Shown here: piece by piece, positions 5,217 to 6,176 of the stretch
How positions within the stretch are numbered: position 1 is the stretch's first letter
Layout: each line of letters opens with the position of its first letter
IMG/VR virus record: IMGVR_UViG_2778261639_000016
Source: a virus
Lineage: Duplodnaviria; Heunggongvirae; Uroviricota; Caudoviricetes
DNA: 9,588 nt
Direction: 5' to 3' (one strand)
The notes under the pieces: model-generated
What the model saw: only the letters and a program-made list of their open reading frames with translations
Told to the model about the DNA's origin: nothing
The model's database searches: none
Position numbers and translations under genes: made by a program

Positions 5217-6176
5217 ATGATAAAAAAACCTGTGATTGGAATCAGCGGTTGTTTGGCCGGTTCTGCTGTTCGTTTTGATGGTGGTCACAAAAGAGCTGAC
5301 TTTTTAATGGACAAATTAGTGGAATGGGTAACATTCAGACCAGTATGTCCGGAAATGGCTATAGGGCTGCCAGTTCCGCGTCCTGCTCTACGTCTTGTGC
5401 GCTCGACGCAAGGAAATATACGGATGTGTTTCAGCCACGACCAGAATGAGGATGTGACAGAGAGAATGACAGAGTTTAGTCGTTCTTATATGGACAAATT
5501 AAAGGATGTATCGGGGTTTGTGGTTTGTGCTAAATCTCCCAGCTGTGGCATGGAGCGCGTGCGTGTCTATGATGAAAATGGTAATCGAGGTCGTAAAGAT
5601 GGAGTGGGACTATTTACGAGCACTTTGATGGAAAAGTTTTCCTGGCTACCGGTTGAAGAGGATGGGCGATTACATGATCCAGTGCTTCGTGAGAATTTTG
5701 TTGAAAGAGTTTTTGCTTTGCATGAGCTCAATCACCTTTACAAGGAGAAATTATCAAGAAGAGAGTTATTAGCTTTTCATAGTCGTTATAAGCTTCAGTT
5801 GTTGGCGCATAGTCAGGCAGGCTATAAAGATATGGGACCATTTGTGGCTGCAATACACGAGTGGGCGGACCTTGAATCATACTTTGAGGTGTATCGTGAT
5901 AAGCTGATGGCGATTCTCAGAAAACCTGCGTCACGTAAAAATCACACGAATGTGCTGATGCATATACAGGGGTATTTTAGTAACTACTTAAGTACACGCC
6001 AGCGTAAAGAGTTGAGCGAGGTTATACTTAACTATCGTTCTGGCACATTACCTCTTCTTGCGCCGTTGACTCTGCTGAAGCATTATCTGGGTGAGTATCC
6101 TAATGATTACTTGCTTACACAGAATTACTTCGATCCCTATCCGGACGAACTGGCTCTAAGACTGATGGTAAATTAA
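5217..6176 (+). CDS. DUF523 (TudS-like) / DUF1722 (YbgA-like) fusion protein, putative [4Fe-4S] thio-nucleobase desulfidase
   Basis: 319 aa; SD AGGGGGA 5 nt before ATG; N-terminal motif GISGCLAG...VRFDGGHK typical of DUF523; cysteines at 12, 44, 104 and 110, consistent with a 3-Cys cluster-binding pattern; the C-terminal half resembles YbgA-type DUF1722. Transcribed divergently from the lipocalin gene. Confidence 0.75.
   Translation: MIKKPVIGISGCLAGSAVRFDGGHKRADFLMDKLVEWVTFRPVCPEMAIGLPVPRPALRLVRSTQGNIRMCFSHDQNEDVTERMTEFSRSYMDKLKDVSGFVVCAKSPSCGMERVRVYDENGNRGRKDGVGLFTSTLMEKFSWLPVEEDGRLHDPVLRENFVERVFALHELNHLYKEKLSRRELLAFHSRYKLQLLAHSQAGYKDMGPFVAAIHEWADLESYFEVYRDKLMAILRKPASRKNHTNVLMHIQGYFSNYLSTRQRKELSEVILNYRSGTLPLLAPLTLLKHYLGEYPNDYLLTQNYFDPYPDELALRLMVN

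Follow-up and report, generated by a model that had tools for sequence, protein, structure and literature searches.

A 9,588-nt stretch of DNA from a virus of the class Caudoviricetes (IMG/VR record IMGVR_UViG_2778261639_000016; the whole stretch that was analyzed is referred to below as the window) belongs to a lambdoid prophage and carries, between the gene for the antiterminator Q and that for the holin, an open reading frame (ORF) that we assign to the RudS family. The ORF starts with ATG, spans 319 codons on the + strand from 5217 to 6176, and was confirmed as real. Its product fuses a TudS domain to a DUF1722 domain, which is the architecture of RudS, a family that converts 4-thiouridine at position 8 (s4U8) of transfer RNA (tRNA) to uridine (Jamontas et al., Nucleic Acids Res 2024, PMC11417400). 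The gene, its probable translation start signal and its two domains are located as follows:

5217..6176, + strand: rudS coding sequence (319 amino acids (aa), TudS-DUF1722 fusion, tRNA 4-thiouridine desulfidase by homology), from the ORF, Pfam and homologues
5205..5213, + strand: strong Shine-Dalgarno-like ribosome-binding site, AAGGGGGAG, ending 3 nt short of the ATG, by direct reading of the sequence
5235..5663, + strand: catalytic TudS/DUF523 domain, residues 7-149, by Pfam, profile-to-PDB alignment and Foldseek
5790..6143, + strand: helical domain DUF1722 (residues 192-309), which is proposed to bind the anticodon arm of tRNA, by Pfam, with the role taken from PMC11417400

A first-pass annotation of this DNA, which was made from its letters and a list of ORFs, had called a TudS-like DUF523 domain joined to a YbgA-like DUF1722 domain and had made that call depend on significant profile matches to both. 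Both matches are strong and lie far above the Pfam cut-offs: PF04463 (2-thiouracil desulfurase, formerly DUF523) covers residues 7-149 (E=3.1e-40, 137.9 bits, cut-off 34.7), and PF08349 (DUF1722) covers residues 192-309 over the full length of the model (E=1.9e-40, 138.2 bits, cut-off 22.5). The motifs it had read, GISGCLAG and VRFDGGHK, are present, as are the cysteines at 12, 44, 104 and 110. The protein is also matched over its full length by phrog_3275 (E=1e-227). The NCBIfam YbgA model NF007549 covers residues 160-315 only and scores 190.8 bits (E=1.4e-56), below its equivalog cut-off of 237; this match of the C-terminal half explains why genome annotation calls the product a "YbgA family protein". 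E. coli YbgA itself (b0707) is a stand-alone DUF1722 protein without the catalytic domain. TudS (DUF523Vcz; PDB 6Z92/6Z96), the [4Fe-4S] desulfidase of thiouracil and 4-thio-UMP (the monophosphate of 4-thiouridine), has in common with the window protein its catalytic fold and its CPE and SPSC motifs. However, TudS is a single domain of about 150-170 aa that lacks DUF1722, is about 27% identical to the window protein, and acts on free bases and nucleotides rather than on tRNA. At 319 aa, and with a second domain under purifying selection, the window protein is not a stand-alone TudS.

Conservation of the active site was assessed in a set made up of the window protein and 136 cluster representatives (35-55% identity) from a search of 1.84 billion proteins, and the counts given here are out of these 137 sequences. 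Single-sequence and close-family profile searches of the PDB covered only the N-terminal 60 residues of TudS, and a profile from a diverse alignment was needed to reach the TudS SPSC motif. Run against the PDB, this profile matched TudS 6Z92 with E=5e-16 and placed TudS Cys10, Cys43 and Cys104 opposite Cys12, Cys44 and Cys110 of the window protein, with TudS Lys98 opposite Cys104. Together with the numbering of RudS_KT, the chromosomal RudS of Pseudomonas putida, these alignments give the following positions:

5250..5252, + strand: Cys12 codon, predicted [4Fe-4S] ligand 1 (TudS Cys10), kept in 136/137
5346..5354, + strand: Cys44-Pro45-Glu46, predicted ligand 2 (TudS Cys43) and catalytic Glu (RudS_KT Glu51)
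5379..5381, + strand: Arg55 (RudS_KT Arg60, which orients the catalytic Glu), kept in 136/137
5526..5528, + strand: Cys104, by the alignments not a conserved ligand, at the position of TudS Lys98 and RudS_KT Met108
5535..5546, + strand: Ser107-Pro108-Ser109-Cys110, predicted catalytic serines and ligand 3 (TudS S101-P-S103-C104)

The CPE motif is close to invariant (Cys44 in 135, Pro45 in all 137 and Glu46 in 136), and the SPSC motif, which aligns to residues 100-105 (GSPSCG) of TudS, is kept nearly as well (Ser107 in 136, Pro108 in 135, Ser109 in 128 and Cys110 in 134). Position 104, in contrast, is Cys in only 10 sequences and is Lys in 75 and Met in 29. Since Cys110 is conserved in 134/137 and lies opposite TudS Cys104, the predicted third cluster ligand is Cys110 and not Cys104, and the ligands listed for RudS_vir, a phage-encoded member of the family, are likewise Cys12, Cys44 and Cys110 (PMC11417400). 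The first-pass annotation had given the cluster cysteines as 12, 44 and 104 (plus 110). Its first two are retained, whereas 104 has to give way to 110; the earlier "104" looks like TudS numbering that was carried over in error. A misalignment of the cysteines with the TudS ligands, which it had named as fatal to its proposal, is not what the alignment returned, as three cysteines align. Cys104 is a trait of a minority of lineages, which include phage RudS and the aligned Enterobacterales orthologues, and it occupies an active-site position; the change from Lys98 to Met108 is the one active-site difference noted between TudS and RudS_KT (PMC11417400).

The remaining catalytic residues, Glu46, Ser107, Ser109 and Arg55 (E51, S111, S113 and R60 in RudS_KT), are all present, and their spacing from the ligand cysteines is that of RudS_KT. 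RudS_KT mutants in the ligand cysteines and in the catalytic Glu, Ser and Arg are inactive, with E51M abolishing activity and R60M inactive as well (PMC11417400). Residues R19-F20-D21-G22 stand at the same offset from the first cysteine as the tRNA-contact loop R24-Y25-N26-G27 of RudS_KT and are well kept (Arg in 135, Phe or Tyr in 119, Asp or Asn in 136, and Gly in 129). In the DUF1722 domain, S239-R240 would correspond to the S243-R244 contact of RudS_KT, an equivalence drawn with RudS_KT outside the alignment.

The first-pass annotation had treated the function as open among thiolated tRNA bases, sulfur-modified nucleic acid and toxic thio-analogues. This is superseded, as the enzyme is already known: its family, its mechanism and a phage orthologue have been published. 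Six RudS proteins, RudS_vir among them, lowered tRNA s4U between 4.7- and 26-fold when overexpressed in E. coli, while stand-alone TudS and E. coli YbgA left it unaffected; purified RudS_KT bound and desulfurized tRNA in vitro, and its overexpression shortened the growth delay under ultraviolet A (UVA) from about 105 to about 60 min (PMC11417400). RudS_vir comes from Escherichia phage 1H12 (NC_049947, H3V29_gp66) and is identical to the window protein at 298 of 319 residues (93%) in a gapless alignment, with no substitution at C12, C44, E46, R55, S107, S109 or C110. Because a 93%-identical protein lowered tRNA s4U, thiolated tRNA bases are the established choice among the three options. Toxic thio-analogues may be a side activity at most and not the main role: growth of cells with RudS_vir was delayed on 4-thiouracil, and there was none on 2-thiouracil (PMC11417400). 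Closer relatives of the window protein are also found in phages, as a product of phage IdasGreatGrand is identical at 318 of 319 residues. In IMG/VR, 127 contigs encode the protein; 80 of these were fetched, in a scan that took in close relatives only, and the exact window sequence is the commonest rudS allele among them (27/80).

Nothing that we found supports the remaining option, sulfur-modified DNA. In its wider form, RudS would act on some other sulfur-modified nucleic acid, such as 2-thio wobble bases or DNA with phosphorothioates, and might thereby serve in counter-defence. We give this almost no credence: when RudS was induced, 2-thiocytidine did not change, and none of the RudS proteins allowed growth on 2-thiouracil (PMC11417400); the chemistry of TudS is specific for thiocarbonyl groups on pyrimidine rings; and the cassette in which rudS is found has no defence genes, of the dnd/ssp type or other, beside it. 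We therefore consider it very probable that the ORF encodes a RudS, that is, a monomeric [4Fe-4S] desulfidase that would convert s4U8 (and s4U9) of tRNA to uridine, in the phage setting and with the role proposed below.

By homology, Cys12, Cys44 and Cys110 would hold the [4Fe-4S] cluster and leave its fourth iron free. DUF1722 would dock on the anticodon arm of the tRNA, a role that stems from docking and mutagenesis in PMC11417400, and the TudS domain would touch the D arm, the variable loop and the acceptor stem. The TudS domain would then take up the flipped-out s4U8, with its thione sulfur binding to the free iron, while Glu46, positioned by Arg55, Ser107 and Ser109, would deprotonate a water molecule so that hydroxide could attack C4. 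The sulfur would depart on the cluster and be freed as sulfide, leaving uridine as the product.

The neighbouring genes of the window are of phage type (RusA and Q upstream; a P21-type holin, a lysozyme remnant, Rz/Rz1 and Bor downstream), in agreement with the prophage location that had been claimed for the ORF. Among full-length matches, the best (99.3% identity) is to a DLP12-type prophage of E. coli GF131 that sits at the argU tRNA gene. Around rudS the following features were recognized:

3952..4344, + strand: late-gene antiterminator Q (Pfam Phage_antitermQ, E=2.5e-51)
4443..4475, + strand: intrinsic-terminator-like hairpin with a T run, about 100 nt past Q, a candidate tR' by position, through which Q-modified polymerase would transcribe
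4500..5024, - strand: blc, outer-membrane lipocalin lipoprotein, divergent from rudS (Pfam Lipocalin_2, E=7e-44)
6528..7258, + strand: AraC-family (YdeO/AppY-like) regulator gene, frameshifted (Pfam HTH_18/HTH_AraC and allele alignment)
7447..7662, + strand: holin essD, first gene of the lysis cassette and end of the Q-to-holin slot (Pfam Phage_holin_2_1, E=2e-35)

The gene rudS is thus the middle one of a three-gene cargo cassette comprising blc, rudS and the AraC-like regulator gene. The lipocalin scores 316 bits against the NCBIfam Blc model (cut-off 267), while the best NCBIfam match of the AraC-like gene is YdeO, below the cut-off, and its product is about 31% identical to AppY. GC content is 44% in blc, 43.5% in rudS and 32% in the AraC-like gene, compared with 48-49% in Q and the holin gene, so that in both its position and a composition unlike that of its neighbours the segment qualifies as a Q-to-holin cargo cassette. 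PHROGs holds all three of its genes as families of unknown function. Searches of the window for tRNA genes and Rfam families found nothing.

The Q-to-holin slot holds differing cargo in other prophages, and we take it to be the slot that is occupied by nmpC in the DLP12 prophage of K-12 and by stx in Stx phages. Those morons likewise sit just past the late antiterminator gene and before the holin gene, in sense with late transcription. The window differs from them in carrying a tRNA-modification eraser, a lipocalin and a regulator, and in that dependence on the late promoter is only proposed here. Phage 1H12 has the same cassette of Q, blc, rudS, AraC-like gene and holin, with 89.5% DNA identity over 95% of a 3-kb region. 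Past the lysis genes, the window also contains a Bor-family lipoprotein gene (8342-8683, - strand), which is named "iss" (increased serum survival) in the closest genome and is a second candidate for lysogenic conversion in the same prophage.

This prophage copy is damaged on either side of rudS. The AraC-like gene has a run of seven T at 6644-6650 where intact 243-codon alleles have eight, which loses the frame after about 40 codons, and the gene is annotated as "frameshifted" in the closest genome. Only a partial match to this gene was obtained in 15 of the 80 fetched viral contigs, and slippage may recur at its T tract. Compared with intact DLP12-type prophages, the window lacks about 307 bp within 7662-7919 (junction 7862/7863); this deletion takes away two-thirds of the endolysin gene rrrD, at its C-terminal end, and the region around the Rz start codon, for which reason we regard the lysis cassette as dead and the prophage as cryptic. 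Phage 1H12 is, in contrast, deposited as a complete lambdoid genome, while the DLP12-type prophage of the window is defective, its regulator gene being frameshifted and its endolysin gene deleted. The genes rudS and blc are intact despite these broken neighbours.

The cassette is not confined to this prophage. Among the fetched IMG/VR contigs, 61 of 80 show the gene order Q(+), blc(-), rudS(+), araC(+), holin(+), and the rudS ORF is intact in all 80. The same order occurs in 12 deposited phage genomes, and E. coli prophages of the DLP12 type and of the Qin type alike have the cassette. A rudS match was obtained in 1,136 of 5,426 complete E. coli genomes; in 1,064 the match takes in at least 80% of rudS, and in 998 at least 80% of the cassette. 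What the first-pass annotation had called unusual in a prophage is therefore a common moron of E. coli lambdoid phages, with rudS in about a fifth of complete genomes. E. coli lacks RudS according to the RudS paper (PMC11417400) and to a 2026 review; this is true of BL21 and, as the paper states, of K-12, but it does not apply to the species at large, as roughly 20% of its complete genomes carry rudS. In BL21 (NZ_CP053601.1, 1558651-1558797) a Qin-type prophage holds blc and a 147-nt (49-codon) stub of rudS beside an IS3 element, and in the commensal E. coli HS the cassette is complete and occupies the Qin site. BL21 was the expression host used to characterize RudS.

Two further database records deserve comment. 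Two short contigs of the Candidatus Nanosynbacter metagenome-assembled genome D148_maxbin.008, a Saccharibacteria bin, contain the E. coli phage cassette at 94-100% protein identity and are almost certainly a binning contaminant. One 403-aa E. coli database protein joins 92% of RudS to a GGDEF domain (PF00990); this singleton comes from one contig, and its fusion probably goes back to a rearrangement or an assembly error.

The nearest chromosomal orthologues of the window protein are found in Citrobacter (76-77% identical), with other Enterobacteriaceae at 66-75%. Enterobacterial chromosomal RudS proteins (RudS_ST/ORF319 of Salmonella pathogenicity island 2 (SPI-2), and those of Enterobacter, Citrobacter and Klebsiella, 66-77% identical overall) are 319 aa long like the window protein, and chromosomal RudS, including RudS_KT, has the two-domain architecture and all of the catalytic residues in common with it. 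On the chromosome, blc(-) is in most loci followed by a MerR/MlrA-like regulator, then in many cases by a transthyretin-like gene, and finally by rudS. As in the phage, blc lies divergently upstream in most of these loci, and more than 40 enterobacterial chromosomes have it next to the rudS operon; in two Citrobacter genomes it directly adjoins rudS, again as in the phage. The linkage of an outer-membrane lipocalin to a tRNA s4U eraser thus recurs across chromosomal loci, and in Enterobacter, Leclercia, Lelliottia and related genera the cluster blc(-), MerR/MlrA-like, transthyretin/HIUase-like, rudS is conserved. Citrobacter braakii ATCC 51113 has two rudS paralogues, which lie on separate contigs with neither blc nor MerR nearby; the identity to the window protein is about 76% for both.

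The phage and chromosomal loci differ in their regulators. A MerR/MlrA-type regulator adjoins chromosomal rudS in most loci examined and a transthyretin-like gene is present in many, whereas the phage locus has neither and instead has the AraC-like gene, in a segment downstream of Q. No MerR-family gene was found in the window or in the phage loci, and the AraC-like gene was found in none of the chromosomal rudS loci examined. An identification of the AraC-like gene as a homologue of Salmonella ORF242 was considered and rejected, as the chromosomal neighbour is MerR/MlrA-like and the phage gene is AraC/YdeO-like. By these comparisons of gene content, the blc-rudS segment of the phage lacks the MerR regulator and is linked to an AT-rich regulator gene (32% GC) that is unrelated to it. 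Phage rudS has a GC content of 43.5%, against 51-60% in chromosomal copies, synonymous sites between the two are saturated, and the blc-rudS intergenic region was dissimilar to that of the two Citrobacter loci with the same adjacency when we searched for a donor. Because of this shift in GC, the saturation and the dissimilar intergenic region, we regard the capture as old and cannot name a donor.

Between phage alleles (at a synonymous divergence, dS, of about 0.3), the ratio of nonsynonymous to synonymous substitution rates (dN/dS) is 0.10-0.19 for rudS, 0.065 for blc and 0.27 for the AraC-like regulator. Against the 1H12 allele it is 0.10 for rudS as a whole, and by domain it is 0.18 for TudS and 0.10 for DUF1722. 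At these low values rudS is under purifying selection, and the enzyme, its tRNA-binding domain included, is being maintained. They also bear upon a view in which rudS is a mere passenger, a piece of chromosome that a lambdoid phage picked up and that hitch-hikes between Q and the holin gene, of use to neither phage nor host. The slot is known for interchangeable cargo, the prophage is decaying, with its AraC-like gene frameshifted and its endolysin gene deleted, and in BL21 rudS has been reduced to a stub beside an IS3 element, all of which would fit such a passenger. Nevertheless, an ORF that is intact in every one of the fetched viral contigs, the dN/dS of 0.10-0.19, the composition and saturation that imply long residence in phages, and the presence of the gene in about 20% of complete E. 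coli genomes at two distinct prophage sites make this view very improbable.

Judged from its position, rudS most likely shares the transcription of the late genes once the prophage is induced, as other cargo of this slot does, since it lies in sense orientation past Q and the hairpin at 4443-4475, and the MerR gene is absent. Low-level expression in the lysogen is possible. RudS genes have been tied to light-responsive regulation (PMC11417400). Removal of s4U8 would prevent its near-UV cross-link to C13, and with it the uncharged tRNA, the accumulation of ppGpp and the growth delay that would otherwise follow. Translation would then go on in the UV-stressed cell, a plausible advantage for the lysogen or when UV triggers induction. 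It is conceivable, although we put this forward tentatively and think it rather less likely than its failure, that the phage has rewired a light-stress enzyme of its host: by dropping the MerR regulator and placing rudS behind Q, UV/SOS induction would erase the s4U8 near-UV sensor and so sustain the synthesis of late proteins.

Several points count against the assignment as a tRNA eraser with such a phage role. A scan of the window for sigma-70 promoters performed at chance (13 sites versus 10.3 expected from shuffles), pR' was not located by promoter scan or by eye, no LexA box was found in the window, and a terminator-like site at 7320-7341 stands between the cassette and the holin gene. 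With its endolysin gene deleted, this prophage cannot lyse its host, which makes any phage-side benefit moot here. At the protein level, the window allele is 21 substitutions away from the RudS_vir that was tested, so that its function is predicted from sequence likeness. The structure model, which was built with 39 close homologues, is poor (mean predicted local distance difference test score (pLDDT) 67.5, predicted template modelling score (pTM) 0.56) and gives no basis for judging cluster geometry. Nevertheless, when this low-confidence model was searched with Foldseek, TudS provided the only PDB matches below E=0.01 (6z96, E=3e-4, template modelling (TM) score 0.57 on the target, 144 columns). 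The DUF1722 part of the model is all-helical and retrieved no PDB match, and DUF1722 is without a solved relative in PMC11417400 also. Finally, the tRNA activity of RudS_vir was comparatively low for its expression level, and its lag on 4-thiouracil was the shortest among the RudS proteins (PMC11417400); for these two reasons the phage RudS lineage may be less tRNA-specific.

These last observations, and the fact that the catalytic domain is a TudS domain, lend themselves to a different account, in which phage RudS mainly salvages or detoxifies free thiolated pyrimidines (4-thiouracil, or 4-thio-UMP from tRNA turnover) and its tRNA activity is a side effect of overexpression. Yet growth with RudS_vir fell short of that with TudS and was nil on 2-thiouracil, and every fusion tested lowers tRNA s4U where stand-alone TudS does not (PMC11417400). 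Selection on DUF1722 is, moreover, at least as strong as that on the catalytic domain (dN/dS 0.10 versus 0.18), which would be unexpected if only small substrates mattered. We consider this account unlikely, if somewhat less so than that of a passenger gene, and we favour the assignment of the window protein as a RudS acting on tRNA.

Records that name such proteins "YbgA family", "DUF523 and DUF1722 domain-containing" or "hypothetical", as well as the PHROGs entry of unknown function, can be renamed RudS. The prevalence of rudS on E. coli lambdoid prophages matters for work on s4U or near-UV responses in natural isolates. Also of interest is what a tRNA-modification eraser, minus its usual regulator, does for temperate phages that keep it at the head of the late operon. 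If the tentative reading of a rewired light-stress enzyme is true, the near-UV physiology and the tRNA s4U content of the E. coli strains that have the cassette, about one in five, would set them apart from K-12 and BL21, which would contradict the textbook picture of E. coli as a species without an s4U eraser.

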